In this document: piece by piece, positions 20,644-44,137 of the stretch
Layout: every line of letters begins with the position of its first letter
How positions within the stretch are numbered: the stretch's first letter is position 1
Assembly: GCA_959601495.1 (NCBI GenBank)
Contig: CAUGPT010000004.1
Span: 14,844 to 78,843 of the forward strand
Reading direction: 5' to 3'
DNA length: 64,000 bases
Source of the DNA: an uncultured Eubacteriales bacterium
Lineage (GTDB): Bacteria > Bacillota > Clostridia > Oscillospirales > CAG-272
Notes under the pieces: model-generated
What the model saw: the letters and a program-made list of their open reading frames with translations, nothing else
Told to the model about the DNA's origin: nothing
Databases searched by the model: none
Made by a program: the position numbers and the translations under genes

Positions 20644-20655
20644 ATTCTTTCTCCT

Positions 20656-20937
20656 TTATCTCGCACGCCCGGAGCACGTACATTCGTTCTGCCAGGGCCA
20701 CGGGCCGTCTGTCCAGCTCCAGGAGCCGTCTGCGGGATCGGCGAAAGCTGTCATGGGACCGTATTTGTTCTCATATTCTTTTACAAGAGCGCACAGCTCG
20801 TTTCTCCGCATACGGAAAAACTCAAGGGCATCTCTGTCCGTCGGATGGGTGTCCAGAAACAATGCTGCCTCGTGTACGCAAAGTCCTACTGCGCTTATTC
20901 TGTTTATAAGCGCATTTCTTGTTCTGTCGGCGGTCAT
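20656..20937 (-). CDS. cotJB: Spore coat protein CotJB
   Basis: CotJB-like core (AVGLCVHEAALFLDTHPTDRDALEFF...YENKYGPMT). ATG 20937 follows AAGGAGG by 8 nt and overlaps the cotJA stop as ATGA; the longest ORF starts at 20958. Confidence 0.8.
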   Translation of the reverse strand: MTADRTRNALINRISAVGLCVHEAALFLDTHPTDRDALEFFRMRRNELCALVKEYENKYGPMTAFADPADGSWSWTDGPWPWQNECTCSGRAR

Positions 20938-21482: not shown

Positions 21483-21588
21483 CTTTTATATTTCCTTTCT
21501 TTACTTTTATCATTCGGGAGCGCCGCGGCGCTCATTACAGTATATGAACTCTCGCTGCCGCGTGCAAACGGCACGGCTGTGCTGTATA

Positions 21589-21617
21589 TTGACAAATTTG
21601 TCGTATTGTGATATAAT
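21589..21617 (+). promoter_or_regulatory. Sigma-A-type promoter upstream of the zinc-ribbon membrane protein gene, with a palindrome over the -35
   Basis: TTGACA (21589-21594), 17-nt spacer ending TGa, TATAAT (21612-21617). The perfect 12-bp palindrome GACAAATTTGTC (21591-21602) overlaps the -35. Confidence 0.55.
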
Positions 21618-27904: not shown

Positions 27905-28360
27905 CTATTCAGTATCGGTGTCGATCTGCGCAAAAGCGTCTTGCAGGCCGAGGTTGAGGTTTATATTGCTGTCCGTTTCTGCGCCGTCCAGCACATAGCT
28001 TTTCGGCGAATCTCCCATGAGTGTCAGCTTTGCGTGGTTATGCATAAAGCATATTTCCGTACCGTCGGCCTTGTCAAATGAAATAAAGTTCAATCCGTAA
28101 AGAAGCTCGCCTTTTTCATTCCTGTTGCTCAGGTGCTTATCGGTCTCTTTCAGTTTCAGACTTTTGAGATAACGTATGACAGGTGCCATCTGCTCGCTGC
28201 CTTCTGCAATGCCGGCGACGCAGCGTATACGGACTACATCACTGAAAAACTCATCGGTAAAAAGATCGTTTGCGGCAGCTTCTTCTTTATCGCTTTTTGC
28301 GCAGCTGCAAATGCCGAAAATCAAAACCGATACAAGTAAAAATGCCAATATTCTTTTCAT
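27905..28360 (-). CDS. Lipoprotein of unknown function (151 aa)
   Basis: MKRILAFLLVSVLIFGICSC signal with lipobox, followed by a terminator. The longest ORF (start 28465) would bury the signal peptide. Confidence 0.6.
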   Translation of the reverse strand: MKRILAFLLVSVLIFGICSCAKSDKEEAAANDLFTDEFFSDVVRIRCVAGIAEGSEQMAPVIRYLKSLKLKETDKHLSNRNEKGELLYGLNFISFDKADGTEICFMHNHAKLTLMGDSPKSYVLDGAETDSNINLNLGLQDAFAQIDTDTE

Positions 28361-28504
28361 AGTTCCCGTCCTTTCAAAATGTTTTATTATTTCGGATGCG
28401 TACGGTACCATCGAGATCAGCGCCACCTCCTCTGCTATGCGGCATTGCCGCAGATATCCGTTCACCGTTGAGTGTTTATAAGTTATAAGTGCTTTTTTAA
28501 AATA

Positions 28505-28533
28505 ATCATACTATAAAATATTTGCAATTTCAA
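28505..28533 (-). promoter_or_regulatory. Sigma-A-type promoter upstream of the 151-aa lipoprotein gene
   Basis: On the minus strand: TTGAAA (28533-28528), 17-nt spacer, TATGAT (28510-28505). Confidence 0.45.
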
Positions 28534-28669
28534 CCATGCCGCACGTTTTTTACCTTTAGAATGAAACTTTATTGTGAACATCGGAAAACGCCTGCATTAC
28601 CTTTATATCGCGGCGCGCCCCGCGGACGGGCGCCGCTGTGATGACAGTGTGCATTTTGCCCGAAAACGG

Positions 28670-28698
28670 TTGCAAAAGATATATTTGCGTGGTAAAAT
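28670..28698 (+). promoter_or_regulatory. Sigma-A-type promoter upstream of rnhA
   Basis: TTGCAA (28670-28675), 17-nt spacer, TAAAAT (28693-28698). Confidence 0.45.
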
Positions 28699-28734
28699 AT
28701 AAGTCAGTACCACCCACGGCGGAGGAAATGCATT

Positions 28735-29175
28735 TTGAAAAATGTGGATATATACACGGACGGCTCCTGCAAAATAAATCCCGGTCCCGGCGGCTGGGCG
28801 GCAATTCTCGTGTACGGCAGCGCCGAAAGAGAGATATGCGGCGGAGAGGCGGATACCACCAACAACCGCATGGAGCTTAAAGCGGTCATAAACGCTCTTA
28901 AAATGCTGAAAGAGCCGTGCAGCGTCCGCATTACCACCGATTCGCGGTACGTAGCCGACGGCATCGGAAAGGGCTGGGCGGCGTCATGGAAAAAGCGCGG
29001 CTGGAAAAAGGCGGACAAATCTCCCGCGCTCAACCCCGAACTGTGGGACGAGCTTCTCGGTCTTTGCGAAAAGCACGATGTGAGCTTTGAGTGGGTAAAG
29101 GGGCACGCGGGTCACCCGTACAACGAGCGCTGCGACACCCTTGCTCAGACCGAGGCGGAAAAATACAGAAAATAA
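28735..29175 (+). CDS. rnhA: Ribonuclease HI
   Basis: [29 protein letters not shown] and [13 protein letters not shown] motifs. TTG start 8 nt after GGAGGA. Confidence 0.9.
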
Positions 29176-29213
29176 TTAAAATACCGCGCTGCGGCGCGGC
29201 AAAGGAGAAACCT

Positions 29214-29708
29214 ATGAAAACAAAGATCATTTCGCTTATTCTTGTGTCGGTATTTGCGGCGGCGCTGCTTATGGGCTGCGCTTCTTCCGATGTTGCCGCC
29301 GAGACCGCATGGGTCGACGTAAACTCCGGAAACGTCAGAAAAAGCACCCATTCCGAAACTCAGGCGGAAACCGCGCCCGATACGGACGCCGACGGCAATC
29401 TTCTTCTGACCACCGACGAGAACCGCCTCGTATACCAGACAGAGTACGGCTGCGAGGTGCTCGTGTTCAACGGCACATATGTAAGTAAGATTTATCTTGT
29501 ATATACTTTTGCGAGCGCCGACGATGCCTCGCAGTATCTGAACAGCAATGCCAACGAGATTATGTCGGCAGGAGACGTTATGGATATAAAGCAGCAGGAC
29601 AATATGCTTATTCTCAGTGCTAAAATGGCAGCTCAGAAATATATTAAGTACCTCTCCATGACACGAGAGCAGGTTGAAGAAGAGTTCGCTTCTTTCAAGA
29701 AGCAGTAA
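29214..29708 (+). CDS. Lipoprotein of unknown function (164 aa)
   Basis: MKTKIISLILVSVFAAALLMGC signal with lipobox. AAGGAGA RBS before ATG 29214. The longest ORF (29091) overlaps rnhA. Confidence 0.6.
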   Translation: MKTKIISLILVSVFAAALLMGCASSDVAAETAWVDVNSGNVRKSTHSETQAETAPDTDADGNLLLTTDENRLVYQTEYGCEVLVFNGTYVSKIYLVYTFASADDASQYLNSNANEIMSAGDVMDIKQQDNMLILSAKMAAQKYIKYLSMTREQVEEEFASFKKQ

Positions 29709-29725
29709 TTTCAGAGGAGATATAT

Positions 29726-30937
29726 ATGGGAGAAACCATTTTCGGCGCAGCCGACATACTCCTGCCCCCCTTTGACGACCCCGCAGAATGGAGCGCGTAT
29801 TCGGTTATAGCGTGTGACCAGTTTACAAGCGAGCCGGAGTACTGGGAAAAGGCGGAAAAGCTGAGTGGCACGCTTTCAACGCTTGATATGATCCTGCCCG
29901 AGGCGTACCTCGGTACCAATAAAGAGGCGGCGGCTAAATGGCGCATTGCCGAAAAAATGCCCCTTGCTTTGCAAAAGCTGCATTGCTATAAAAGCAGCAT
30001 GGTGTATGTGGAGAGAGTTCTGCCGGACGGCGGAGTTCGCCGCGGAATTGTAGGCAGTATCGATCTTGAAGAATATGACTATACGCCATCCTCGGCATCC
30101 CCTGTCAGAGCAACGGAGAAAACCGTCGTGGAGAGGATCCCGCCTCGCGTGGAGATACGCCGAGGCGCTCCGATAGAGCTTCCGCACGTCATGGTATTTG
30201 CCGACGACAGAAAAGGTATGCTTATACAGTACCTTTGCGATCGCAGAGAGAGTCTTCGCCGCCTTTACGATTTCGATCTCATGCTCGGCGGCGGACATAT
30301 AACCGCATACCTTGTTGACGGTGAGATACTCAGAGCGCTCCTTTGCAATATTGCGGACTATGAGGCGGAAAAAAGCGGCTCCGTCGTGTACGCAATGGGC
30401 GACGGCAACCACTCGCTCGCAAGCGCAAAAGCATACTGGGAACAGCTGAAGGCGGACGGGGCGGCGCCCGATCATCCCGCGCGCCGCGCGCTTGTTGAAC
30501 TTGTTGACCTCGGCGACGGCGCTATCGCCTTTGAACCTATATACAGGCTTATCACAAACTGCGATACCGAGAAGCTTATATCGGCGCTGCGCGAGAGCGC
30601 CGAAAAACACGGCAGCAAAAAAACTGCCGTCGCTGTGACGGCTGACGGAGAAAGGGAAGTGCCCCTTCCCGATCTTCACCCGCTTGCGATCGGCTGCCTG
30701 CAGCAGTTTCTCGACACCTGCGGTCTTACTTTCGACTGTGACTATATCCACGGCGAGGATACTCTGCGCACTCTCAGCCGCCGTCCCGACGCGGTGGGAT
30801 TTCTGTGCGGCGGTATAGAAAAAAGCGAGCTGTTTGACTATGTGACGCGCCACGGCGTTCTGCCCAGAAAGACATTTTCCATGGGTGAGGCGCGCAGCAA
30901 ACGCTATTATCTAGAGGCAAGAAAGATAACTTTCTGA
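29726..30937 (+). CDS. DUF1015-like protein
   Basis: ~400 aa. The internal MGDGNHSLASAK resembles the DGHHR motif of DUF1015 proteins. Assignment is from memory and moderate. Confidence 0.5.
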   Translation: MGETIFGAADILLPPFDDPAEWSAYSVIACDQFTSEPEYWEKAEKLSGTLSTLDMILPEAYLGTNKEAAAKWRIAEKMPLALQKLHCYKSSMVYVERVLPDGGVRRGIVGSIDLEEYDYTPSSASPVRATEKTVVERIPPRVEIRRGAPIELPHVMVFADDRKGMLIQYLCDRRESLRRLYDFDLMLGGGHITAYLVDGEILRALLCNIADYEAEKSGSVVYAMGDGNHSLASAKAYWEQLKADGAAPDHPARRALVELVDLGDGAIAFEPIYRLITNCDTEKLISALRESAEKHGSKKTAVAVTADGEREVPLPDLHPLAIGCLQQFLDTCGLTFDCDYIHGEDTLRTLSRRPDAVGFLCGGIEKSELFDYVTRHGVLPRKTFSMGEARSKRYYLEARKITF

Positions 30938-31272
30938 AGACGGAATACATAACACATCCGATTATAGGCGGCTGCATAAGGGTTTTAGGCAAATGTGACA
31001 AAGGAACCCTGCGCAGCTGCCTGTTTTGCACTTGCCGAAGCCCGAAACCGGCGACGGATTCGACAAAAAATTACATTTTTATATATATAATAACCAAACA
31101 CGATTTTTTGCGCGCCCGATAGATAAATGCTTTTCGTCATATGATTCGACATAAAAACCGTGCCGAAAAACGCAAAATACTGCATTTTAATATCAAAAAT
31201 GTGAACATATTGTACACGCACTGTGCAATTTGAAAAATTAGGGTAAATTTTTATTTATTTTTTTATAAACTA

Positions 31273-31301
31273 TTGACAATGCGGGGGCAGAAAAGTATAA
31301 T
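31273..31301 (+). promoter_or_regulatory. Consensus sigma-A-type promoter of the 1533-aa surface protein gene
   Basis: TTGACA (31273-31278), 17-nt spacer, TATAAT (31296-31301). Preceded by a ~300-nt AT-rich tract. AGGAGG RBS at 31319-31324. Confidence 0.6.
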
Positions 31302-31331
31302 GTAAGTACCAATATTTTAGGAGGTAAGCTC

Positions 31332-34300
31332 ATGAAAAAATTACTTTCTGTAATTGTAATTGTCACCATGCTTGTGACCGCAATGTGTCCTGCGTTCGCA
31401 ACCATGGCAGCTGACACGATTGACATTTCCGCCGAAAACACATACTTTACAAAGAATGATGACGGAAACGGCGAGTCAACTATGACTGTTTCAGTTACAA
31501 ACAACCCCGGATTTTCCGATCTTACATTTGTGGTGTATTACGATACCACCTATGTAAGCTCCATTGAACCCGATACCGCAAGTTCCGTGTTCGGTGACGA
31601 TTTCATAACTGTAAACGGTGCAAGAAAATCAACTGTTGCAGCTGTGAAGAAGCTTTTCACCGCTGCAGGCCTTGCGACCGGCGCTACGATCTACGCAAGG
31701 CAGATCGACGTTAATTATACTGATGCAAACGGCGAACCGCTGAATACTGCCGAGCTCGGCGAGATTCTGAAGTTTGTCGTAACATCTGCCGGGACTTATG
31801 ATGAGATCCCCAACGAAGCAGTCACTGTCGGCTACTTCGTTGCGTCTGCTTCAAACGTGGGCGGCGATAATCTGGAGTTCAGCGCTCCCGGCACCTGCGC
31901 AATAGAGAAAGACCCCTGGGCTTCTTTCGAGACCGAAAAGACGTATGACAATTTCACACTTGCGGCCGGCGATATGAACGTTTATGCGGGCACTACTACC
32001 GTTGACGTTCCCGTAAGAGTCTACAACAATACTAATGAGTATGGCTTCTTGTCAACGGCACTCACCATTGTTTTCCCGAAAGAGCTTCATCTTGATTCTC
32101 TCATTTTCAACACAAAGGCGCAGTCCGTAAACCCCATTAAGCGTATTAGTGACGATGCACACACCGACTATGCTATTCAGGATCATCTTGATAATTTCAA
32201 TGAACAGTGCCAGGGCGTGTTTGAGCAGAATAACATCGACTGGAGAACCCTGGATGCAAAGTGCGAATACTTTTTGACAGAGCCTACCGAGCCAACTGTC
32301 GAAGGCAGTATGAGAGAAACCAACGCTTTGTTCTACACGCTCAGATTTGTGCTTCCCGAGAACGCAAGACCCGGTACAAAGTATGATATTAAGGTTTACA
32401 CCAGAGTCAGAGACGGCGTTGTCGGATTTGTCGGCGGCGACGGCAACGAAAATATCGTTTCCATGACACACAACCTCGGCAACGGTTCCATTAAGGTCCT
32501 GAGCAAGTCCGCTTGTGACCACTCCGAGACCGAAGAGAAAATCGTAACTCCCGCAACCTGCACATCCGTCGGTACAAAGAATATCGTCTGCAAGCTTTGC
32601 GGCGAGATCATTGATACCGTTGAGATCCCCATGACGGATCATACCTACGTATCATCTGTAACCGAGCCTACCTGTGAAAAGGGCGGCTACACCACATACA
32701 CCTGCTCCGTATGTAACCACAGTTACACCGGCGATGAGACCGATGCTCTCGGACATGTAGCCGGCGAAAAGAAAGTTACCGTCGAGCCTACATACGAAGC
32801 AGAGGGTACATATGAGATCCGCTGCACAAGATGTGACAAGGTTCTCGAGACCGGTTCTATCCCGAAACTTGTAAAGACAACTATTACCGTAGGCGATGCG
32901 GCTACAAAGCCCGGCAACGATATAGTAGTTCCCGTAACTGTTGCAGACAACCCGGGTATGTTCATTACAAGACTTACAGTTAAATACGACGCAACAAAGC
33001 TTACCTTCGTAGAGGCAGTTAACGGCGAAGTATTTGCAGACGCTACAAACGTGCTCTTCACTAAAGTAGAGGACGGCAACCTCACTCTGTATTTCGAGAC
33101 AGCAGACGAGGCCGATACTTCCGTAAACGGCGTTCTTGCAAACCTGAAGTTTACTGTTAACTCCGATGAAAGCATAGTAGGAACAACCGATATTACAGTT
33201 GAGGTTGAGGACGCAGTCAACTATGCAGGCAAGGATCTTGACATCGTTACCGCAAACGGTACCGTAACCATCGCGGCTAACCAGAAGATCACTGCCGAGA
33301 GCCGTGAAGTTGAAATCAACAAGACTGTTGAAGTTCCCGTTGCAATCGCTGCAAACGAGGGCGTTTGGGCACTCCGTCTTGAGGTTGCATATAATGCGGA
33401 TCTCATAACTCTTGAGTCCATCAAGTCCGGACTGCTCTCGCTCGAAGAGGGCGTGAACTACAGCGTAAAAGACGGTGTCATCACTATCTTCAAGGACGCT
33501 GACGATCTTGCTAACATTGAAGCTGACGGCACACTCTTTACCCTCGTATTCAAGGCAGGCGCCGCGACCGGCGAGTCTGCTGTCGGTATTACAGTGCTTA
33601 ATGCAATTAATAACAAGGGCGAGGACCTCTCCATTAAGATATTCAACGGTGCCGTAAAGGTTATCCCCTGCACGCACTCTGAATACAAGACCGAAGTAAC
33701 CAAGGCTCCTACAGTTGAGGAAGAGGGCGTTCTGTCCTACATCTGCACCAACTGCGGCGAGACCTTCAAGACCGAGCCTATCGCACGTCTTGCAGGACTT
33801 ACTATCGGTAAGGTTACTGCCAATGCAGGCGGCGCAGTCGCAGTTCCCGTAACTGTTTCTTCCAACCCCGGCACATACTCCATCAGAATGGAATACAGAT
33901 ATGATGCCGAAGCTCTTACGTTCGTAAACGTAACCGGCGGTATCTTCACTGCTGACGAGTTCAGCGCTTCCGTACATGACGGCGTTGTTACAGTATATGT
34001 AGAGGCTGACACGGTTGCCAACATAACCGATGACGGCGTTGCATTTACCCTCAACTTCACCGCAGCAAGCACTGCTGAGGGCACATACGAGGTTGCCGGT
34101 ACTCTCCTTCAGGACAGCACTCTTAACGTAGACGGCGATGAGATCGCTTACACTGTTGTAAACGGCGAAGTTGCAATCACCAATAACTTCGTAGCAAGAA
34201 TAGGCGATAACTATTACACCGACCTTAAGACCGCATTCAATGCAGCAGTTGACGGCGACACTGTAGTTATCACCAAGAACTTCAGCTACGGCGTTGACGA

Positions 34301-35933
34301 AAGCTTCGCCATCTACGGCGTACATGTACGCAGCAAGAAGGTAACTCTTGACCTTAACGGTCACACTATCACCACCGACTTCGGCGAGGGCAACAATAAC
34401 TGGTGCGCGCTGTACCTTAATAATGCCGAACTTACCGTTATCGGTGACGGCACAATTACTGCATATGCTACTACAGGCGGCTATGTATTCAACCTTGTTA
34501 ATTCCAAACTCTATATTGAGAACGGTACATTCAGCGGTAATCCCAGTGTTGTAAATGTTGAGTCCGGTACGGCATATATCCGCGGCGGCAGATTCTATAC
34601 CGACGACGAGAATAAGAACTTCCTGGTTAACTGTATTGATAAGGCTTATAAAGACGGTATTGCCAACATTGAAGTAACCGGCGGTACATTCAGAGACTTT
34701 GACCCCAACAACTGCAAGGCTGAGGGCGAAGGCACAGACTTTGTTCCCGTAGACTACAAGTCCGTAGCTTCCGAGGAAGAGGGCTGGTTCAATGTAGTTC
34801 CCTGTGATCCTCACGAGTATGAGGTGAGCGAGAGAGTTGAGTCCACCTGTGTAGTTGCAGGTCATATTACTTACACCTGTAAGAATTGCGGCAGAAGCTA
34901 TGATGAGCCTCTGGAGCTTGCAGATCATACTCCCGGCGAGTGGACCGTTGAAAAAGAGCCTACCGCTGGTGCTCCCGGTCTCGAGGTGCTTCGCTGTGCA
35001 GTTTGCGGAGAGATCCTTGATTCCCGCGAGATCCCCGCTCTCGGATTCATCACAAAGGTTTCCGCTAACAGCTATGTCAAGTCCGCAACTCTTGACGGTA
35101 CTGTAATCAGAATCGTCACCAGCGGCACTGCAATTTCAACCGCAAGATTTGCAATCGGATACACCAAGGGCGTTACCTTCACGACCGAAGGCTGCACCGC
35201 ACCCGTGGTACGCAGCACATGGGCTTACATCGACCTTGATCTGCCTTGCGAAGGCGGCAAGATCATCTGCACCGATACAGCCGGCAATACTCAGGAATAC
35301 ACCGTTGAGGTTACCTCCTCTCCTTCTTCCTACAAGTATTACACCGCAGTAGCAGGCGGCTATACCGTTGACAGAGTTGACGATACGACCGCAGCAGATA
35401 CGTTCTATGTATACGCTAAGCCGAACATGAACAACGCAACCCTCATGCTCCAGATTCCCGCAGCTAACACCTATACCTACAGCGAGGGTCTGACGCTTGT
35501 TAAGGCAGGTAATAAGGTATACTTTAAGGCACTCTCGACCGCAGATACCCACGAGTACACCATCACCATTACTACTCCCAACGGCGTAGCAAAGACATAC
35601 ACTGTATACTACGTATTCGATAACACCAACATTGCAGACTGTCTGGGCGGTTACATGGTAGACAGATGTGAGATGAACGGCGACGTAATCAACCTTGCCG
35701 TAAGTGCTGATTACACATATGCTTCCTTCAGATTTATATTCAACAACACCACCACTACTCTTGTATGGCCGGATGATGTTGATGTAGTAATGGGAGGTAA
35801 AGGCGGCATCCACTGGTTCAAGATCTACAACGACGGCACAGGCGCTGTAACCAAGCAGTTCACTGCAAGAGATACAGCTACCGGCGTAGTTGAGACCTAT
35901 ACAGTTAACGTTACTTTCGGTGCTCTCAACTGA
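31332..35933 (+). CDS. Secreted 1533-aa multi-domain surface/scaffold-like protein: cohesin-like modules, His/Cys mini-modules, beta-helix-like block, Ig-like C-terminal region
   Basis: Signal peptide MKKLLSVIVIVTMLVTAMCPAFA. There are three clear cohesin-like modules (e.g. TITVGDAATKPGNDIVVPVTVADNPGMFITRLTVKYDATKLTFVEAV...) plus two divergent N-terminal ones. Six PTCxxxGxxxxxCxxCG-type modules are present. Strong promoter and AGGAGG RBS. Confidence 0.85.
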   Translation: MKKLLSVIVIVTMLVTAMCPAFATMAADTIDISAENTYFTKNDDGNGESTMTVSVTNNPGFSDLTFVVYYDTTYVSSIEPDTASSVFGDDFITVNGARKSTVAAVKKLFTAAGLATGATIYARQIDVNYTDANGEPLNTAELGEILKFVVTSAGTYDEIPNEAVTVGYFVASASNVGGDNLEFSAPGTCAIEKDPWASFETEKTYDNFTLAAGDMNVYAGTTTVDVPVRVYNNTNEYGFLSTALTIVFPKELHLDSLIFNTKAQSVNPIKRISDDAHTDYAIQDHLDNFNEQCQGVFEQNNIDWRTLDAKCEYFLTEPTEPTVEGSMRETNALFYTLRFVLPENARPGTKYDIKVYTRVRDGVVGFVGGDGNENIVSMTHNLGNGSIKVLSKSACDHSETEEKIVTPATCTSVGTKNIVCKLCGEIIDTVEIPMTDHTYVSSVTEPTCEKGGYTTYTCSVCNHSYTGDETDALGHVAGEKKVTVEPTYEAEGTYEIRCTRCDKVLETGSIPKLVKTTITVGDAATKPGNDIVVPVTVADNPGMFITRLTVKYDATKLTFVEAVNGEVFADATNVLFTKVEDGNLTLYFETADEADTSVNGVLANLKFTVNSDESIVGTTDITVEVEDAVNYAGKDLDIVTANGTVTIAANQKITAESREVEINKTVEVPVAIAANEGVWALRLEVAYNADLITLESIKSGLLSLEEGVNYSVKDGVITIFKDADDLANIEADGTLFTLVFKAGAATGESAVGITVLNAINNKGEDLSIKIFNGAVKVIPCTHSEYKTEVTKAPTVEEEGVLSYICTNCGETFKTEPIARLAGLTIGKVTANAGGAVAVPVTVSSNPGTYSIRMEYRYDAEALTFVNVTGGIFTADEFSASVHDGVVTVYVEADTVANITDDGVAFTLNFTAASTAEGTYEVAGTLLQDSTLNVDGDEIAYTVVNGEVAITNNFVARIGDNYYTDLKTAFNAAVDGDTVVITKNFSYGVDESFAIYGVHVRSKKVTLDLNGHTITTDFGEGNNNWCALYLNNAELTVIGDGTITAYATTGGYVFNLVNSKLYIENGTFSGNPSVVNVESGTAYIRGGRFYTDDENKNFLVNCIDKAYKDGIANIEVTGGTFRDFDPNNCKAEGEGTDFVPVDYKSVASEEEGWFNVVPCDPHEYEVSERVESTCVVAGHITYTCKNCGRSYDEPLELADHTPGEWTVEKEPTAGAPGLEVLRCAVCGEILDSREIPALGFITKVSANSYVKSATLDGTVIRIVTSGTAISTARFAIGYTKGVTFTTEGCTAPVVRSTWAYIDLDLPCEGGKIICTDTAGNTQEYTVEVTSSPSSYKYYTAVAGGYTVDRVDDTTAADTFYVYAKPNMNNATLMLQIPAANTYTYSEGLTLVKAGNKVYFKALSTADTHEYTITITTPNGVAKTYTVYYVFDNTNIADCLGGYMVDRCEMNGDVINLAVSADYTYASFRFIFNNTTTTLVWPDDVDVVMGGKGGIHWFKIYNDGTGAVTKQFTARDTATGVVETYTVNVTFGALN

Positions 35934-35970
35934 TAGTACGGATGCAAAAGTCAAATAATTGAGAAACGGT

Positions 35971-36003
35971 GCACCCCGCTCCATATGGAGCGGGGTGCAT
36001 TTG
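35971..36003 (+). terminator. Hairpin terminator after the 1533-aa protein gene
   Basis: GCACCCCGCTCC-atat-GGAGCGGGGTGC (12-bp stem) followed by ATTT. The weak U-tract may allow read-through into the glycan locus. Confidence 0.55.
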
Positions 36004-36018
36004 AGAACGGAGATTTTT

Positions 36019-37146
36019 ATGGCAGAACGTATACTTTGCGTGCTCGGCAAGCTGCGTGCCGGCGGAGTCGAAAGCATGATGTACTCATATTACCGCGTGC
36101 TTGACAAAAGCCGCTGGCAATACGATTTTGTATATGAGGAGGGCTCGGAGTTTGATGTGCCCGCAGGGCTTACCGCTATGGGCGCCGGTGCATATAAGGT
36201 GCCCTCTGTATCGTCACCGCATAAATACATAAAGGCTATGAAAAAGCTTATACGCGACGGCGGATACCGCATAGTTCACACAAACCTAAACACGCTGTCG
36301 CTGTTTTCGCTTTGGGCGGCAAAATGCTGCGGCGTGAAAATACGTATACTACATAACCATTCCACATCATCGGGTGTGGAGAAAAAGCGTGATATAATTA
36401 AAAAAGTCCTGCGCCCGTTCAACAGAATGCTCACAACGCACCCATGCGCCTGCTCGGAATACGCCGCGCGCTGGATGTACGGTGACAAAGCTGTCGACAG
36501 CGGGAAAATTAAGGTTTTTCCGAACGGCGTCGATACGGAAAAATTCAGCTATGATCCCGGGTCCCGGGATGAGATCCGACGCGAATTCAATTTAGGAAAC
36601 AACACTGTGATAGGTCACATAGGAAGGTTCAATACGCAGAAGAACCATAAATTCCTTATAGACATTTTCAGTGAGTATCATAAAATCGACAAAAACGCAT
36701 ACCTCCTTTGCGTCGGCGGGGGAGAACTGATGGATGAGATCAAAGAGTATGCGAACAAGTGCGGTGTGGCGGACAGAGTGATTTTCGCCGGATACCGCAA
36801 CGCCGATGTTCAGAAGTTTTACAGCGCATTTGACATTTTTGTGCTGCCTTCGCTTTATGAGGGACTGCCGGTCGTGGCAGTCGAAGCCTGCGCCGCGGGA
36901 CTGCCTGTGCTCATGTCAGAACACGTTACGAAAGAGGCTCTCATAACCGACAGATGCGAAATGCTTTCCATAAACGGCGAGAATGACGCTTCTGCCTGGG
37001 CAGAGCACATAAAGTCGGCACTCGGCGAAAACGACCGCGCGAAAACCGCCGCTCAGATGGCAAACGGATGCTTTAATATCAGAAACAGCGCAGCGGAGCT
37101 TGAAAACTACTATGCGGCATGTGCAGCGGAGCTTGACAGGGCATGA
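36019..37146 (+). CDS. Glycosyltransferase family 4 (GT-B, EpsF-like)
   Basis: N-terminal GKLRAGGVESMM and the C-terminal EGLPVVAVEACAAGLPV motif typical of GT4. ATG 36019 lies after the upstream terminator. Confidence 0.8.
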   Translation: MAERILCVLGKLRAGGVESMMYSYYRVLDKSRWQYDFVYEEGSEFDVPAGLTAMGAGAYKVPSVSSPHKYIKAMKKLIRDGGYRIVHTNLNTLSLFSLWAAKCCGVKIRILHNHSTSSGVEKKRDIIKKVLRPFNRMLTTHPCACSEYAARWMYGDKAVDSGKIKVFPNGVDTEKFSYDPGSRDEIRREFNLGNNTVIGHIGRFNTQKNHKFLIDIFSEYHKIDKNAYLLCVGGGELMDEIKEYANKCGVADRVIFAGYRNADVQKFYSAFDIFVLPSLYEGLPVVAVEACAAGLPVLMSEHVTKEALITDRCEMLSINGENDASAWAEHIKSALGENDRAKTAAQMANGCFNIRNSAAELENYYAACAAELDRA

Positions 37147-38177
37147 AAACTGTAATACATTTTCTTATAACCGATATATACTCCGGCGCGGAAAGCGTCG
37201 CCGCACATATTATCAAAAACCTCCCCTCCGGTTGGGATGGATACTATGCGGCACCCGCCGGCAGCGGGCTTGAAAAAGTCAGCGCCATGGGTATAAAAAC
37301 GATAGAGTGCAACACCTCCGATATAAACGATATAAAGCGGGTGTGCAGAGAGTATTCTCCGGACGCCCTTCACGCACATGATCCTCATATGAGCTTTAAC
37401 TGCGCGCGTGCGGGCATTCCGTTTGTGGCGCATCTGCACTGCAACTGTCCGTGGCTTTCAAAGCTTTGCCCCAACAGCATAGCTCTTGCATATGTTTGTC
37501 TCAGGGCTTCAAAGGTCATATGCGTTTCAAACAGCATAGTTGACAGCTACATTTTCAAAAACATCCTCAAAAAAAAGGCGGCTGTCCTCAATAACTGCAT
37601 TGACGCCGCCGAAATACGGGACCTCGCGTTGGAGCCGTGCGGCGAAAGCTATGATATTTGCTTTACGGGGAGGCTTGAGGAGGAAAAAGGCCCGCTTGAG
37701 TTTGTCAGGGTCGTGGCTGATGTTAAGAAGGCTCTTCCTAATGTGTCCGCTGTTATGCTGGGAGACGGCAGCCTCAGAAAGGCGACTTCGGCTCTCATCG
37801 GGGAACTGAACCTTAGCGCAAATATCACACTCAAGGGTTTTGTGGATAATCCGTATAAGTATATGATGGCTTCAAAGCTCGGCGTCCTCACCCCGGTCGT
37901 CGAGGGCTTCGGACTTGCGGCGGCGGAGCAGCTGTTGCTGGGGCATCCGTTCTTGGCATATCCCGTGGGCGGGCTTACGGAGATCGTAAACGACAGGTGC
38001 GGCAAGCTGTGCCGCTCGAAAAAAGAGATGTGCGCGGAGATCGTCCGCCTGCTTTCGGACAGCGCCTACTACGCCGCGAAATCGTCATATGCACCCATGG
38101 CGGCAGCACGCTTTGCCGATATGAAAAGTTATATGGAAAGCATTACGTCATGGTATTCGGCGCTGCCGAAGGTTTGA
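37143..38177 (+). CDS. Glycosyltransferase family 4
   Basis: GRLEEEKGP and VEGFGLAAAEQLLLGHP motifs. ATGA overlap with the upstream GT4 gene. Confidence 0.75.
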   Translation: MKTVIHFLITDIYSGAESVAAHIIKNLPSGWDGYYAAPAGSGLEKVSAMGIKTIECNTSDINDIKRVCREYSPDALHAHDPHMSFNCARAGIPFVAHLHCNCPWLSKLCPNSIALAYVCLRASKVICVSNSIVDSYIFKNILKKKAAVLNNCIDAAEIRDLALEPCGESYDICFTGRLEEEKGPLEFVRVVADVKKALPNVSAVMLGDGSLRKATSALIGELNLSANITLKGFVDNPYKYMMASKLGVLTPVVEGFGLAAAEQLLLGHPFLAYPVGGLTEIVNDRCGKLCRSKKEMCAEIVRLLSDSAYYAAKSSYAPMAAARFADMKSYMESITSWYSALPKV

Positions 38178-38286
38178 CGGCTTCTCGTATTTTTTGCCGA
38201 ACCATGCCGCACGCGCGCGGGGATTGACAGCTATTTCGCAATGTGATAAAATATTAGAAAAGCAACCGAAAGGCACGGGCTGAACA

Positions 38287-39666
38287 GTGGAGTATATACT
38301 TTCATTTTTGCTGCTCTTACTCAATCTTGTGAACTATGAGCAAAGTATAAATAAAGTAGTATTTTTTGCTGCGGGACTCGTGCTTTTTTGCGCACTTTTC
38401 GTTTTTTGTATGCGAAAGGCGAAAAACTTTCTTGCCGCGTGCATCATGATGCTGTGCCACACATGGCAGATATCGTGGATAAACATTTTCGGCGATCCTT
38501 CGACGAGCCTGCAGCTGCCGTGGTTCTATTTAACGGGCGTGCTGATAGCCGGATACGCGCTTTTCAACATCCGCAGCATGATGAAAACAAAGGTGGGCAG
38601 TGTACTGCTTGCGTCCTTTGCGGCAATTTTTCTTATATTCACGTACCCTCTTGCCACTTCACATTCCAAGTCGGAGGGACTTAAGGAATATATAATGATC
38701 GGATTTTTCCTTGTGCTCACATTCATTGCGGTGCTGTTTTCTTCAACTGTTCCGCATGAGTGCAAGCGTCACATAGAAAACGCGTTCATTTTTGCCGTTG
38801 TCGTTTCATCGGCGCTGCTCATATTCCAGTACGTATATTACACGGCGACCGGACGGTTCATTTTCAAATTTGCCGTCGGTCAGTATAACGGATCGAGCAT
38901 GCGCAGCGCGAAGCTGTTGATGGAGGACACCAGCTGCTCTACCCTTATGCTCGGCTGCGGCGTGTTCTATATGCTGGACAGGCTGAACAAGAAAAACTGG
39001 GTTTTGTACGGCGCGATGATCGTGGTGACCGTTGTGGGTCTTGCGTTTACCACAAGACGTACAAGTGTGGTCACTTTGATGATAGTGCTTGTACTGTATG
39101 TTTTGCTCCATTATAAGGGAGCAATGAAAAAGGCGCTGATGCTCTTGATAATCTGCGGCATTATAGCGGTAATGATAACATATCTTCTCGCGGCGCGTCC
39201 GGTGGATGATATACGCCTCGTTTTTGACGAAAACGGACGTGTGGAGTATTATCGGAACAGCCTTGAGGTGCTGCTGAAAAATCCGCTGGGTATAGGATAC
39301 GACAACAATTACCTTGTTGACGTTGTGGGCGGCATAGTTCCGCACAATACTGTGCTTCGCTGGCTCGTAATGGGCGGCTATCCGTTTGCCGTGCCGATGG
39401 TGGCGATAATGGTGCTGATTTTGCGCGAGTCGTACGTAAAGAAGTTTTCCGCCGAGTTCTGGATAGTGCTTTATACGCTCATCGGCTCAAACTTTATACC
39501 GGATATACTCAACGCGCGGTTTTTCGTTATACCGTGTATGACGGTGTTTCTGTTCAGCCGCGCGGCGAGCCCCGTTCCGGGCGCCGAAACAACAGCGGCG
39601 GCTCCGTCCGGCGGCACCGCTTTGCCGAACGCGGGTGCAGCACAGACAAAGAAGTACAGGGTGTGA
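38287..39666 (+). CDS. O-antigen ligase/polymerase-like (Wzy-type) polytopic membrane protein
   Basis: ~12 predicted TM helices with a large periplasmic-type loop. Positioned in the glycan locus between the GTs and Wzx. GTG start. Confidence 0.6.
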   Translation: MEYILSFLLLLLNLVNYEQSINKVVFFAAGLVLFCALFVFCMRKAKNFLAACIMMLCHTWQISWINIFGDPSTSLQLPWFYLTGVLIAGYALFNIRSMMKTKVGSVLLASFAAIFLIFTYPLATSHSKSEGLKEYIMIGFFLVLTFIAVLFSSTVPHECKRHIENAFIFAVVVSSALLIFQYVYYTATGRFIFKFAVGQYNGSSMRSAKLLMEDTSCSTLMLGCGVFYMLDRLNKKNWVLYGAMIVVTVVGLAFTTRRTSVVTLMIVLVLYVLLHYKGAMKKALMLLIICGIIAVMITYLLAARPVDDIRLVFDENGRVEYYRNSLEVLLKNPLGIGYDNNYLVDVVGGIVPHNTVLRWLVMGGYPFAVPMVAIMVLILRESYVKKFSAEFWIVLYTLIGSNFIPDILNARFFVIPCMTVFLFSRAASPVPGAETTAAAPSGGTALPNAGAAQTKKYRV

Positions 39667-39729
39667 CAAATGCTTTTCCGCCGCAGCGGATGCGGCACAA
39701 ATCAGAAGTTTGAAAGGCACGACTCAGAT

Positions 39730-40944
39730 ATGAAAAAAGTTCTCATGTATAACCACGGCAGCAGCCAGAACCACGGCTGCGAAGCGATAATAAGAACGGT
39801 TTCGGGCATAATATCCCGCCGCTATCCCGACGCGCGCTATACTGTCTCCTCCTTCAGACCCGGCGACGACATAGAGTTCATCGGACCCGACGGCGGAAGA
39901 TATAATTTTGTGTATGCCGACAGACTGAGCCGCAGGGGAAACTATGCCATGCGCACAAAGATAATCGGCGGCTTCAGCCAGCTTTTTCACCGCATCCCCG
40001 CGTTTTCGTATCTGTTTAAGGACACCGTCAACGCCGCAAAAGAGGCGGATCTCATAATTTCCGTCGGCGGTGATAACTACTCCTACGGACGCAGCCTCGG
40101 ACGTACAACCATTGACAACGGACTGCGCCGCATCTGCAAAAAATCCGTGCTTTGGGGATGCTCCATAAATCCCGAACTTCTTGACGGCAAAAAGCAGAAG
40201 TATAAGCTTGACGGCCTCCGCCGTTTTTCGCTCATAACCGCCCGCGAGAGTCTTACGTACGAAGCGCTTAAGGCTCACGGACTTGATAACGTAAAGCTGT
40301 ATCCCGACCCGGCGTTCACCCTGCCGACGGGAGAAGTGAAGGAGCCCATGTTTGACAATGACCGCGACATTGTGGGTATAAACCTCAGTCCTCTCATCCG
40401 CAGCTACGAAACGGGAGACGACATAACGCTCAAATGCTACGTCGCTCTTGTGAAATACATACTTGAAAATACCGATTTCAATATTGCTCTTATATCCCAT
40501 GTAATAAGCCGCACGTCCAACGACAGCGACGCCGCGCGCGATATTATGAAGTTTTTCCCCGATTGCGGCGACAGAATGAAGCTGTTTGACCGCGGCAACA
40601 CGATAGACATAAAGGGATATATCTCAAAATGCCGCTATTTTGTCGCGGCAAGGACCCACGCATCGATCGCGGCATATTCCAATTGTATCCCTACCCTTGT
40701 CGTGGGATATTCCGTAAAGGCAAAGGGAATAGCAAAGGACCTGTTCGGCACGTGGGACGGCTATGTTATTCCCGTAGACAGCCTATGCGAGGAAGACAGC
40801 CTTATTTCGGCGTTCAAAAACCTTTGCAAAAACGAAGAGAGCATCCGCGCGCATCTGGAAAGCATAATGCCGGAATATATAAAGCGTGCCGACGCGGCAG
40901 GCGATGAGATAGTTCGTCTTCTCGGGGAGGACGACCGTGCTTAA
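39730..40944 (+). CDS. Polysaccharide pyruvyl transferase family protein
   Basis: MKKVLMYNHGSSQNHGCEAI... N-terminus and ISVGGDNYSYG, typical of PF04230-type pyruvyl transferases as I recall them. Locus context. Confidence 0.7.
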   Translation: MKKVLMYNHGSSQNHGCEAIIRTVSGIISRRYPDARYTVSSFRPGDDIEFIGPDGGRYNFVYADRLSRRGNYAMRTKIIGGFSQLFHRIPAFSYLFKDTVNAAKEADLIISVGGDNYSYGRSLGRTTIDNGLRRICKKSVLWGCSINPELLDGKKQKYKLDGLRRFSLITARESLTYEALKAHGLDNVKLYPDPAFTLPTGEVKEPMFDNDRDIVGINLSPLIRSYETGDDITLKCYVALVKYILENTDFNIALISHVISRTSNDSDAARDIMKFFPDCGDRMKLFDRGNTIDIKGYISKCRYFVAARTHASIAAYSNCIPTLVVGYSVKAKGIAKDLFGTWDGYVIPVDSLCEEDSLISAFKNLCKNEESIRAHLESIMPEYIKRADAAGDEIVRLLGEDDRA

Positions 40945-42472
40945 TCAGCGCCGCAGCGGTGCGGTGCTTTCGTATGTCTATATAATCGTCAATATGCTGG
41001 TCATTCTCGTGTACCAGCCTTTTGTGCTGCGCACTCTCGGCTCATCCGAGTACGGACTGTACCAGCTTGCCGCCTCTGTCATAAACTATCTGACGGTAAT
41101 GGATCTCGGTTTCGGCAACGGCATAGTTGTATACAGCACAAAATACCGCGCTGCTGGCAGATACGAGGAAGAAAAGCGCCTATTGGGAATGTTCTCCGTA
41201 ATATTTCTTGGCATCGGAGCGGTGGCAGCCTGCGCGGGAGTCGTTATCGCGCTGAACGCGGGCAGGATCTTTGCCGCCTCTCTTACAGCCGCGGAAATAG
41301 CGAAGAGCAAGATACTCATGCTTATTCTGTCAGCCAACGTGGGCATGACATTTGCATTTACCATATACGGCAATATAATAATTTCGCACGAGCGTTTTGT
41401 GTTTTCAAAGCTTGTGACCATACTGCGCGTGCTGCTGAATCCCCTTATAATGCTGCCCCTGCTTCTCCTCGGCGCCGATTCCGTTGCCATGGTGTCTGTG
41501 CTTGCGGCGGTAAACGTGGGCTGCCTTTTGTCAAATTTCATATACTGCCGCAAAAAGCTCGGAGTCAGAGTGCGTTTTGCGGGCTTTGACAAGAAAATAT
41601 TTCTTACGATATTCTCATTTTCCGTTTTCATATTTATGACGGAAGTGGTCGATAAGATCAACTGGTATGTCGATCAGGCGATACTGGGCGTTGTCAGCGG
41701 AACGAGGGAAGTAACGGTATATTCCATGGCGTCCAACTACAATCAGATGGTGCTGTTGGTTTCGTCCGCCCTTGCTTCCGTAATGCTGCCGAAAATTTCG
41801 GCAATGGTCGCGCGCGGCGAGGGTGACAGAAAACTCAGCGACGAGTTTATAAAGGTCAGCCGTCTGCAGTTTTTCACGGTGTTCTTTATAGCAAGCGGCT
41901 TTGTGCTTTTCGGCAAAGAATTTGTAGTCTGGCACGCGGGTGAGATATGCGCACGCTCGTATTACGTCGCCGCTCTTCTCATATGCGGAGCGCTCATTCC
42001 AATAACGCAGACGGTCGCCACAAGCATAGTGCAGGCTAAAAACCTTTTCAGGCCCCGCGCGTGTATAACGCTTGTAATGGCATTATTTAACGTGGCGATA
42101 AGCATTCCGCTTGCCATGCGCTTCGGCAGCGTCGGCAGCGCGGCGGGTACGGCACTGGCGCTTGTGATTGCAAACGGAGTTGCCATGAATATATATTACG
42201 CAAAATGGTGCGGCATAGATATAGCCGGATACTGGAAAAATATTCTGCGTATCCTGCCGGGGGCGGTTGCTCCCATCACCGTGGGTGTGCTTTTCAGAGT
42301 GTTTGTACCCATTAACGCCGTGTGGAAGTTTATTGTCGGTGTGGCGCTGTATTCCGCAATATATGCGCTGTCCATGTGGCTTGTAAGCTTCAATACTTAT
42401 GAAAAGGGAATATTCATGGGCGTTCTTCGTAAAATTACAGGGGGCAAAATAAATGCAGATAGAAACGCTTGA
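40937..42472 (+). CDS. wzx: Oligosaccharide flippase (Wzx, MOP superfamily)
   Basis: 511 aa, ~14 TM, N-terminus typical of polysaccharide biosynthesis/flippase proteins. GTG start after GGGGAGGA, overlapping the upstream stop. Confidence 0.75.
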   Translation: MLNQRRSGAVLSYVYIIVNMLVILVYQPFVLRTLGSSEYGLYQLAASVINYLTVMDLGFGNGIVVYSTKYRAAGRYEEEKRLLGMFSVIFLGIGAVAACAGVVIALNAGRIFAASLTAAEIAKSKILMLILSANVGMTFAFTIYGNIIISHERFVFSKLVTILRVLLNPLIMLPLLLLGADSVAMVSVLAAVNVGCLLSNFIYCRKKLGVRVRFAGFDKKIFLTIFSFSVFIFMTEVVDKINWYVDQAILGVVSGTREVTVYSMASNYNQMVLLVSSALASVMLPKISAMVARGEGDRKLSDEFIKVSRLQFFTVFFIASGFVLFGKEFVVWHAGEICARSYYVAALLICGALIPITQTVATSIVQAKNLFRPRACITLVMALFNVAISIPLAMRFGSVGSAAGTALALVIANGVAMNIYYAKWCGIDIAGYWKNILRILPGAVAPITVGVLFRVFVPINAVWKFIVGVALYSAIYALSMWLVSFNTYEKGIFMGVLRKITGGKINADRNA

Positions 42473-43640
42473 TAAAAGATGTACCGGCTGCGGCGCCTGC
42501 GCTGCGGCGTGTCCCATAAGTTGCATAACCATGACGCCTGACAAAGACGGATTTCTGTTTCCTCAGGTCAGCGACTCCTGCCTCGGGTGCGACCGCTGCA
42601 CGGATGCCTGCCCCGTTATAGGCTTTCGCAAAAAGGCGGCAGAGCGTCCGACGGCGTATGTCGCATATAACAAATGCCGCGACGAGAGAGAGACATCGTC
42701 CTCCGGGGGCATATTTGTGTTGATTGCGAAAAAGATCATCTCCGAGGGCGGAGCGGTGTACGGCGCCGCTGTTTGCGAAAATATGGAGGTGCGTCATGTG
42801 CGTGCCTGTACGAATGACGATATAAAGCGCTTGCAGGGTTCAAAATACGTGCAGAGTATTGTCAGCCGGGAAATATACGAATCGGTGAAAAAAGACCTTG
42901 AGAACGGCAAAAAAGTGCTGTTCAGCGGCACGCCTTGTCAGATTGCCGCAGTGAGCCGTGCGGTAGGGCAGCGAGAAGGATTTTACACAGCAAGCTTTAT
43001 TTGCCACGGCGTGCCGTCTCCGAAGATCTGGGCTGACTACGTTGCCGACAGAGAAGAGAAGGCAGGCGCGCGTATGACGTCCGCAAGCTTCAGAGACAAG
43101 AGCGCGGGTTGGGAGCGTATTTCAATGAAGACCGGATACGACAACGGAACGTTTCATGCGGCAACGCTTGACAAGGATTTGTATCTGCGGGCGTTTCTCC
43201 GAAATCTGTGTCTGAGAGAAAGCTGTTATGAGTGCATTTTCAAAGGCGACGGCGCATATATCGGCGCGGATATACTTCTGTCCGACTGGTGGAGCGCCGC
43301 AGACGGCGTTCTGCCGGAAAAGCTTGACGGGCGGGGAGTTTCGGCTTTGTATACGCTGACCGAAAAAGGCAGCGCCTTGTGGGATGCCGTAAGCGGTGAC
43401 TGCGTTTGGGCGGCAACTGAGTTCGGCAGGGCATCGGGCAACAATTCGTCATATTTTTCGTCCGCGCATAGACCTTCGGCGAGAGACGGTTTTATGTGCG
43501 AATGCACACCCGCAACGTTTGAAGAAAGCATTAAAAAATACGCCCGCACGCCGCTTAAAGCAAGGATGCGAGCCTCATTTATAAGATTGGCAAAAAAGCT
43601 GAAGATATATCAGCTTTTGAAGAATCTTTGCGGCAAATGA
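42453..43640 (+). CDS. Coenzyme F420 hydrogenase/dehydrogenase beta subunit-like (FrhB-like) protein with an N-terminal 2x[4Fe-4S] ferredoxin domain
   Basis: Cysteine clusters [12 protein letters not shown] and [12 protein letters not shown], followed by an FrhB-type body (SSSGGIF...GTPCQI...ICHGVPSP). Overlaps the wzx 3' end by 20 nt. Confidence 0.7.
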
Positions 43641-43761
43641 TATAATGTTTTGCACTTTGAGCAAAAAGCAGGAAAAAACTGTTGCATACAGCGCCGCTCC
43701 GTGCTATAATCTCATCTGTGATTTTAAGAGACGAAGGAAACGAAAGGACAAAGAGAGAAAA

Positions 43762-43920
43762 ATGAAGTACGAATGCACTGTCTGCGGATATGTTTATGAC
43801 GAAGATGAGGGCGATCCCGATAATGGTATCGAGCCGGGCACGGCGTGGGAAGATATACCCGACAGCTTCACCTGCCCCATCTGCGGCGTGGAAAAGGCTG
43901 ATTTCGAGCCGGTTGAGTGA
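43762..43920 (+). CDS. Rubredoxin
   Basis: 53 aa, [19 protein letters not shown]...[17 protein letters not shown]. Two CxxCG knuckles and the conserved aromatic core. Followed by a strong terminator. Confidence 0.9.
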
Positions 43921-43934
43921 CATATAAAATAAAG

Positions 43935-43963
43935 GGCTGACATATAGTCAGCCTTTTATTTTT
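43935..43963 (+). terminator. Intrinsic terminator after rubredoxin (end of the glycan locus)
   Basis: GGCTGAC-atata-GTCAGCC followed by TTTTATTTTT. Confidence 0.75.
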
Positions 43964-44137
43964 GCCGTACTTATCCTGCCGCGCGGCGGGCGTGTATTCA
44001 TAACGGCGGACAGATACCGTGCGCGGGCGCCTGCGGCGGCGCCCGTCGGCATCTGATCTATCGCGCGGCGCAGCGGCAGACACATATCAGAGAGCGGTCA
44101 GACGTCTACCGGGAGCGGTGCGTTTGCGCATTACGGG

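Follow-up and report, generated by a model that had tools for sequence, protein, structure and literature searches.

The 64-kb window analysed here (64,000 nucleotides of contig CAUGPT010000004.1, assembly GCA_959601495.1, from an uncultured Eubacteriales bacterium; all coordinates are positions in this window) carries on its forward strand a gene for a large, probably secreted protein, in which cohesin modules are interspersed with short His/Cys repeats and which ends in three predicted immunoglobulin (Ig)-like domains ahead of a glycan locus. The features of this gene, of its product of 1533 amino acids (aa) and of the downstream locus are given below, with the evidence from Pfam, AlphaFold2 (AF2) and profile searches on which each assignment is based.

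31273–31301, + strand: sigma-70-type promoter, TTGACA-17 nt-TATAAT, consensus match 12/12
31319–31324, + strand: ribosome-binding site AGGAGG, 7 nt 5' of the ATG, read from the sequence
31332–35933, + strand: open reading frame (ORF), 1533 aa, uninterrupted
31332–31400, + strand: signal peptide, aa 1–23 (MKKLLSVIVIVTMLVTAMCPAFA), with an AxA site and putative cleavage
31413–31931, + strand: divergent cohesin-fold module 1, aa ~28–200 (AF2 with a predicted local distance difference test score (pLDDT) of mostly 80–94, Foldseek, PDB profile match)
31944–32510, + strand: divergent cohesin-fold module 2, aa 205–393, with a partly disordered helix-containing insert (PDB profile match, AF2)
32514–32870, + strand: three tandem ZBD-like His/Cys repeats, aa 395–513 (two 3-Cys, then one 2-Cys 'HxxGE')
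32877–33281, + strand: cohesin module 1, aa 516–650 (PF00963 on aa 517–647, E=2.8e-14, 53.9 bits)
33285–33668, + strand: cohesin module 2, aa 652–779 (PF00963 on aa 656–759, E=5.7e-10, 40.0 bits)
33669–33791, + strand: single ZBD-like repeat, aa 780–820 (C-x-H at its start, CxxC only; independent E-value (i-E) 4e-13)
33795–34184, + strand: cohesin module 3, aa 822–951 (PF00963 on aa 823–948, E=3.5e-15, 56.9 bits)
34185–34802, + strand: beta-rich, beta-helix-like cassette, aa 952–1157 (AF2: a helix cap, then ~15 short strands)
34803–35045, + strand: two ZBD-like repeats, aa 1158–1238 (one 3-Cys, then one 2-Cys 'HxxGE'; aligned to residues 854–975 of the IgA protease described below)
35046–35933, + strand: three Ig-like beta-sandwich domains, aa 1239–1533 (ending ETYTVNVTFGALN), and the stop codon; candidate attachment module (AF2)
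36019–43640, + strand: GT4, GT4, Wzy_C-family protein, PF04230 polysaccharide pyruvyl transferase, Wzx-type flippase and FrhB-like Fe-S protein (Pfam)

The promoter of the gene is preceded by an AT-rich tract, and no other TTGACA-17-TATAAT match is found in the region. The N-terminus of the protein, MKKLLSVIVIVTMLVTAMCPAFA/TMAADT, is its sole hydrophobic segment and appears to be a typical cleavable Sec signal with an AxA site. Reading the same segment as a lipoprotein signal (…TAMC) was rejected, as Met at position -1 would be unfit for a lipobox and an AFA site lies after it. The mature protein has a mass of ~162 kDa, is acidic (pI 4.4) and rich in Thr, Val, Ala and Gly, and a 98%-identical copy of the protein is encoded on a contig labelled human gut metagenome. 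A first-pass annotation of this DNA, made from the letters alone, had described a 1533-aa secreted protein behind a signal peptide, with a consensus promoter, a strong ribosome-binding site and an AT-rich upstream tract, all of which are present. The signal peptide (MKKLLSVIV(I/T)V.ML) is almost unchanged in the homologues P0008–P0014 despite only 26–34% identity over the mature N-terminus, a conservation that is unusually strong for such a sequence.

The Pfam Cohesin family PF00963 matches the whole protein at E=4.9e-31 over three stretches, and each of the three canonical modules, scanned separately, lies well above the gathering cut-off of 24.1 bits. The solved sequences closest to them are type-I cohesins of CipC and ScaB (2vn5/1g1k of CipC, E=1e-4 for cohesin 1). 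The N-terminal 370 residues have no match in Pfam or NCBIfam, both divergent modules falling below the PF00963 cut-off. However, the AF2 model of aa 25–520 (nine family members in the alignment, mean pLDDT 79) resembles solved cohesins, which are nine-stranded jelly-roll beta-sandwiches, in a Foldseek comparison, with template modelling (TM) scores of 0.79 for 3ul4_A (root-mean-square deviation 4.1), 0.79 for 5nrm_A and 0.72 for 4uyp_C. A profile of orthologues (A1) matches PDB entry 10uw_A, 'Cohesin domain number 1', over positions 12–75 (E=2e-4), and over positions 269–367 it matches the Ruminococcus flavefaciens ScaC cohesin 5lxv_A (E=8e-6) as well as ScaB 4ums and ScaE 2zf9. In P0014, the region homologous to divergent module 2 gives a sub-threshold Pfam cohesin match of its own (E=9e-5). 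The cohesin assignment of the canonical modules thus comes from sequence and the fold match from the model of aa 25–520. Because the three Pfam matches are joined by this AF2/Foldseek and profile evidence on the N-terminal pair, the protein has five modules of cohesin fold, the three canonical ones and the divergent pair. The alignments used for structure prediction were shallow (9–10 sequences), since homologue searches with both ends returned few proteins: a word-indexed search added one new protein for the N-terminal 369 aa and six for the C-terminal 293 aa. Three clear cohesin-like modules (at about 32877–33272, 33285–33665 and 33798–34182) and two more divergent ones on their N-terminal side (about 31413–32500) had been marked in the first-pass annotation, which had named PF00963 and AlphaFold with Foldseek as checks. 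The former are borne out by Pfam with agreeing coordinates, and the latter by the predicted fold and the PDB profile matches.

Six His/Cys mini-modules are located at aa 396–434, 436–473, 474–513, 782–820, 1161–1193 and 1198–1237. A hidden Markov model of the repeat finds each of them with an i-E between 1e-9 and 2e-16 and nothing else in the window, save for a trivial CxxC match (E=2.7e-4) in a rubredoxin ORF. Mini-modules 1, 2 and 5 carry the set His+Cys3 while 3, 4 and 6 retain CxxC only, which agrees in full with the earlier count of six short modules grouped three, one and two, half of them with three Cys. In mini-module 4, an extra Cys two residues ahead of the His results in a Cys-x-His+Cys2 set. 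The 2-Cys or 3-Cys subtype at each position is kept in orthologues. DSSP analysis of the AF2 model gives three strands in each of the three units at aa 395–513 (pLDDT 76–89). The 2-Cys 'HxxGE' unit is the last of its rod and is followed directly by a beta-sandwich, namely cohesin 1, cohesin 3 and the C-terminal module; a unit of the same kind stands just ahead of the Ig-like BB8 domain of an IgA protease and of the dockerin of the homologue P0008.

This repeat is not confined to the present protein. When the three-unit segment was run in phmmer on 1.84 billion representative proteins, 27,350 of them matched at E<=1e-3 (12,161 at <=1e-10 and 2,463 at <=1e-30), and the repeat often stands together with cohesin, dockerin or SLH domains. 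Up to 56 matched repeat stretches occur in one protein and the repeat-bearing proteins reach 7,583 aa, and the ~38-aa unit is among the commonest extracellular repeats in Clostridia. The initial homologue search had returned hundreds of matches which covered ~7% of the query yet scored 200–500 bits, because the matched proteins hold the unit many times. LRR, Big_2 and F5/8-C domains also occur alongside the repeat in other proteins. A consensus built on 6117 copies of the unit from 266 proteins reads GH-x9-10-(P/A)TC-T-x2-G-x5-C-x2-CG, with the His conserved in 89% of the copies, the first Cys in 91%, the Gly in 99% and the last two Cys in 100% and 96%. The first Cys is absent from ~12% of the parsed copies, most often replaced by Glu, and among these copies HxxG[ED] is enriched. 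The unit has no Pfam or NCBIfam model, neither in local libraries nor in the precomputed Pfam assignments of repeat-rich proteins such as P0015 and P0018. In P0125–P0127 (L006 9001–10329), a different ~40-aa Cys/His unit (…EAVCHQTGNVEYWYCxxCEAVFxDAALTQLSN…) stands ahead of the C-terminal module and may represent a second, related type of mini-module.

Among PDB sequences, the repeat profile A3 (53 units) finds a sole family match in the IgA protease of Thomasclavelia ramosa (9qa6_A, E=3.8e-20, three stretches), the next best matches being unrelated zinc fingers at E>=1e-5; profile A2 matches this entry too at E=1.2e-12. On this profile evidence the His/Cys repeat is homologous to the domains ZBD1 and ZBD2 (CTD2 and CTD4) of that protease. 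Two papers of 2025 describe these domains as rod-like 'periscope' spacers with predicted structural zinc, extended in small-angle X-ray scattering (PMC12237041, PMC12415215), and each unit is a three-stranded antiparallel sheet (PMC12237041). Our literature search found no description of a cohesin and His/Cys repeat architecture beyond the IgA protease papers. The first-pass annotation had called the architecture unusual; it is recurrent in metagenomes, though it is indeed not a described family.

Between cohesin 3 and the last two repeats lies the cassette at aa 952–1157, whose short regular strands are compatible with a beta-helix in the AF2 model. The cassette has no match in Pfam, NCBIfam or PHROGs, nor does a four-sequence profile of it match anything in the PDB, so that the block noted earlier as beta-helix-like at 34185–34800 stands as a prediction of short regular strands but not as a member of a matched family or structure. 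The segment aa 952–1236 (34185–35039), which comprises the cassette and two His/Cys repeats, is cleanly absent from P0003 (14 member sequences) and P0005, which are 90–99% identical elsewhere and in which cohesin 3 is joined straight to the C-terminal module. P0006 in turn has an additional, fourth C-terminal Ig-like domain. The length of the stalk therefore differs among alleles.

In the AF2 model, the C-terminal 295 aa are made up of three Ig-like sandwiches (pLDDT ~80–90). Foldseek matches of the C-terminal half are tandem Ig arrays, including titin, cadherins and the S-layer proteins SbsB, Sap and EA1. In its few homologues the triple-Ig module (…ETYTVNVTFG) always stands at the extreme C-terminus. 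The repetitive beta-rich segments recorded earlier for the ~300-aa C-terminus thus resolve into three Ig-like domains, whose probable role as an attachment module the first-pass annotation had missed. It was right that the protein has no LPxTG, SLH, choline-binding or C-terminal transmembrane anchor: a [LSIV]PxT[GANS] motif is found nowhere in the protein, no window beyond the signal peptide is hydrophobic, and a Pfam scan gives no SLH, CWB2, choline-binding or LysM domain. By Pfam and motif search the protein also has none of the recognised targeting or anchoring modules of scaffoldins (CBM, SLH, sortase signal, dockerin). A dockerin-like BLAST match (ORF 17576–18289, E=0.003) was rejected as a partner, as the ORF encodes a cytoplasmic DUF4364 protein.

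Relatives of the protein end differently. P0010 and P0012 (26–30% identity) have the same signal peptide and the same order of two divergent cohesins (CohL1-CohL2), repeat and cohesin, and they end in Pfam dockerins. P0008, which is 43% identical over the cohesin region, likewise has the same signal peptide, ZBD repeats and five cohesins, and its C-terminus is a duplicated 'DVNKDGVINFDDV…' F-hand pair whose best Pfam family is Dockerin_1 (20.4 bits vs a cut-off of 22.9). Because these three relatives end in dockerins, the lineage of this protein, as far as sequence tells, uses cohesin-dockerin pairs.

The kind of C-terminus goes together with the genes that follow. Glycan genes lie directly downstream in 5/5 triple-Ig-ended loci with readable downstream DNA, namely the window itself, L003 (84% identity), L001 (65%, an uncultured Clostridia metagenome-assembled genome), L002 (42%, Candidatus Avispirillum) and L007 (34%); scans for more homologues of the C-terminal module had found two loci in GTDB genomes and two in JGI metagenomes. 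GT4 genes come next in all of them, and pyruvyl-transferase/Wzx genes are present too wherever the contig extends that far. The gene order is kept in L003 and L001 and partly in L002. In L007 the GT4-GT4 start is kept and followed by one 496-aa gene before the contig ends, and the upstream genes differ. The Candidatus Avispirillum locus is without a Wzy_C gene and still keeps the linkage between C-terminal module and glycan genes. In the dockerin-ended loci (P0010, P0012, P0008), glycan genes are directly downstream in 0/3. The genes for P0010 and P0012 sit between the his operon and smpB, and P0008 sits between DUF1015 and rubredoxin genes without glycan genes, the same slot being occupied in L003 by a cohesin gene and six glycan genes. 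Because of this swap at one slot, the gene neighbourhoods are most economically read as a sign that the C-terminal module and the glycan locus are functionally linked. Between 35933 and the first glycan gene no + strand terminator was detected, which adds to the perfect promoter and strong ribosome-binding site as a point on expression and a possible operon. In the stretch 42453–43920 (+ strand), the gene for the FrhB/FdhB-like Fe-S protein comes directly after the pyruvyl transferase and flippase and is followed by a small rubredoxin-like ORF, a pairing that is kept in L003, L001 and L002.

The cohesin gene and the glycan locus are part of a block of ~16 kb (28001–44000) with a GC content of 0.49–0.51 against 0.54–0.56 on both flanks, which also contains RNase H, a small secreted protein and DUF1015. 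In the relative L009, the slot reads DUF1015, cohesin gene and rubredoxin without the six glycan genes. This, together with the lower GC content, suggests that the block is a variable surface island.

A few other genes of the window are recorded here as observations. A 546-aa protein encoded at 52921–54561 (- strand) combines LNT_N and CN_hydrolase domains and is apolipoprotein N-acyltransferase-like, which is unexpected in Clostridia. An 832-aa ORF (21674–24172, + strand) has an N-terminal zinc ribbon (PF13240) as its sole recognisable domain, and in a 91-aa protein (19155–19430, + strand) two zinc-finger domains of the 'probable treble clef' kind make up the chain (PF13451 and PF23477, strong matches). 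The ORFs next to the 832-aa one, at 19699–20955 and 20919–21611, have no Pfam match, and an extracytoplasmic function (ECF)-type sigma factor is encoded at 18426–19013.

Taken together, we propose that this is the gene of a scaffoldin-like surface protein, Sec-secreted and highly expressed, from an uncultured human-gut Clostridia bacterium related to Candidatus Avispirillum. Its five cohesin-fold modules sit along a stalk built of six His/Cys repeats of ~38 aa, and the cohesins would bind dockerin-bearing proteins whose genes lie elsewhere in the genome. By homology to the ZBD/CTD2-4 domains of the IgA protease, structural zinc (His+Cys3) may join the sheets of successive repeats end to end into rigid rods of ~3.7 nm per unit, which would space and project the cohesins. 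The cassette with its two repeats is an insert that some alleles have and others lack, and it alters the stalk length. The C-terminal triple-Ig module most likely binds a pyruvylated cell-envelope glycan made by the adjacent locus, and this binding would hold the scaffold on the cell without an SLH, sortase or membrane anchor. The module is proposed as the attachment end because it takes the position of the dockerin of the relatives and is co-inherited with the GT4/pyruvyl-transferase/Wzx genes. We hold this proposal, a scaffoldin-like cell-surface protein whose C-terminal module is an attachment device linked to the glycan locus, with about even confidence. More tentative, and to our mind rather doubtful, is the wider idea that the triple-Ig module, together with the six genes downstream of it, makes up a self-contained 'anchor plus ligand' cassette. 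This cassette would be a so far unrecognised means, independent of SLH domains, of fixing surface proteins to a pyruvylated cell-envelope glycan in Clostridia, and in evolution it would be interchangeable with a dockerin at the same slot. The His/Cys repeat, with more than 27,000 protein clusters, would on this view be a large family of extracellular rods stapled by zinc that has so far escaped annotation.

Several observations weigh against the proposal. Apart from the weak DUF4364 match, a six-frame translation of the 64-kb window gives no dockerin, the first-pass annotation likewise having seen no dockerin-bearing gene there, and the pairwise identity among the three canonical cohesins is just 33–36%. 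Zinc binding by the IgA protease ZBDs is 'pending experimental validation' (PMC12237041), and mini-modules 3 and 6 (aa 474–513 and 1198–1237) have only His+Cys2 with the conserved HxxGE, Tyr or Ala replacing the first Cys. The Foldseek matches of the C-terminal module are to generic Ig arrays with low TM scores of 0.12–0.2. An initiating phosphoglycosyl transferase is absent from the glycan locus, whose role could be an unrelated one, and the 5-vs-3 comparison of C-terminus and context is small and phylogenetically non-independent.

Much of the same evidence can be read in another way. The strong consensus promoter and ribosome-binding site, the large, acidic (pI 4.4) and Thr/Val/Ala-rich product, and the position of the gene directly upstream of glycosyltransferases, a Wzy_C protein and a flippase, possibly in one operon, would all suit an S-layer-like or otherwise abundant surface glycoprotein which is glycosylated by the locus. 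The Wzy_C protein would then act as an O-oligosaccharyl transferase, and the cohesin folds would be structural and without dockerin partners. S-layer structural genes adjoin S-layer glycosylation clusters in Geobacillus and Paenibacillus, and the co-inheritance of C-terminal module and locus fits a glycosylation target equally to an anchor. We nevertheless consider this explanation unlikely. Three sequence-level cohesins and the dockerins of close relatives point to a cohesin-dockerin network, and the Pfam scan finds no SLH or CWB2 domain. SbsB, Sap and EA1, although they rank at the top when the C-terminal half is compared by Foldseek, reach TM scores of only 0.12–0.18 and are accompanied by titin and cadherins, and the linkage is kept in the Candidatus Avispirillum locus without the proposed transferase.

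Quite improbable, in our judgement, is a released or loosely attached adhesin, in which the sandwiches and the beta-helix cassette would bind dietary or host glycans or cells, the zinc-rod repeats would be mere periscope spacers and the adjacency of the glycan locus would be positional. That adjacency holds down to 34–42% identity and in a different upstream context (L007), and it is lost exactly where the C-terminus is a dockerin. The sub-threshold CBM similarities of cohesins 2 and 1 (CBM_X2, 26.7 bits vs a cut-off of 28.9, and CBM77), which would favour glycan binding, are overlapped by far stronger cohesin matches. The lack of a recognised anchor does fit an adhesin, as does the use of the repeat as the stalk of many unrelated surface proteins (with LRR, F5/8-C, Big_2 and similar domains), and the allele length variation is as in periscope proteins (PMC12415215).

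Cohesin-dockerin systems beyond the fibre-degrading specialists are poorly understood, as is the way in which uncultured gut Clostridia build their surface, and here a multi-cohesin scaffold is found in a human-gut organism. The locus is also a clean example of an abundant extracellular repeat whose zinc-stapled rod structure has so far been predicted for one IgA protease only. That a dockerin and a triple-Ig module with glycan genes naturally replace one another at one slot raises the possibility of a new wall-attachment mechanism. If the anchor hypothesis fails, the protein would be an ordinary, well-annotated member of a large class of modular clostridial surface proteins.

Among known systems, the protein is most readily compared with the cellulosomal and amylosomal scaffoldins, such as Clostridium cellulolyticum CipC, Pseudobacteroides cellulosolvens ScaB, Ruminococcus flavefaciens ScaC and ScaE and the Ruminococcus bromii Sca proteins, which are likewise secreted and carry several cohesins. 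Its best PDB sequence matches are the cohesins of CipC (2vn5/1g1k), ScaB (4ums), ScaC (5lxv) and ScaE (2zf9), and adaptor scaffoldins end in a C-terminal dockerin as the relatives within this family do. In contrast to the scaffoldins, the protein described here has no CBM, X module, SLH, sortase signal or dockerin; its cohesins are separated by His/Cys rod repeats and not by Pro/Thr linkers, and two of them have diverged beyond the reach of Pfam. Neither a glycoside hydrolase nor a dockerin gene lies nearby in the window, and there is no sign of fibre degradation.

The M64 IgA protease of T. ramosa (9qa6) shares the homologous repeat, the alignment extending into the next Ig-like domain, and in both proteins three-stranded antiparallel units with His/Cys ligand sets form a stalk between globular extracellular domains. 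However, its sites are mostly His2Cys2, its cargo is a metalloprotease and its anchor a sortase motif (PMC12237041, PMC12415215), whereas here the set typical of the repeat family is His+Cys3, cohesins are the cargo and a sortase motif is lacking; zinc is predicted in both. Periscope proteins (SasG/Aap and Rib-domain proteins) also have a rod stalk of small beta-sheet units without a large hydrophobic core and vary in length between alleles. Unlike in these, the repeats here are not near-identical, an LPxTG anchor is lacking and the metal is predicted to be structural and not dimerising (PMC12415215). The two are comparable in their working mode but not homologous, as fold and sequence differ.

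In the neighbourhood of its gene, the protein recalls a further system. The S-layer genes of Bacillus anthracis lie beside csaAB, which encode a Wzx-like transporter and a pyruvyl transferase, and the anchoring domain is SLH. Here too, a surface-protein gene has a flippase-like gene and one for a PF04230 pyruvyl transferase in its neighbourhood, and by analogy this csaAB-like neighbourhood suggests anchoring to a pyruvylated wall glycan. In contrast to B. anthracis, SLH is absent, the candidate binder is the triple Ig-like module, and the order and content of the locus differ. The system is thus not a categorically new one, as each of its components is of a known or recently described kind and architectures of cohesin and repeat recur in metagenomes. 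What is new is the recognition of the ZBD/CTD2-4 unit of the IgA protease as a very large unannotated repeat family, the use of the His/Cys repeat as the linker of a multi-cohesin scaffold, and the alternation of a dockerin with a triple-Ig module plus glycan locus at the C-terminus.

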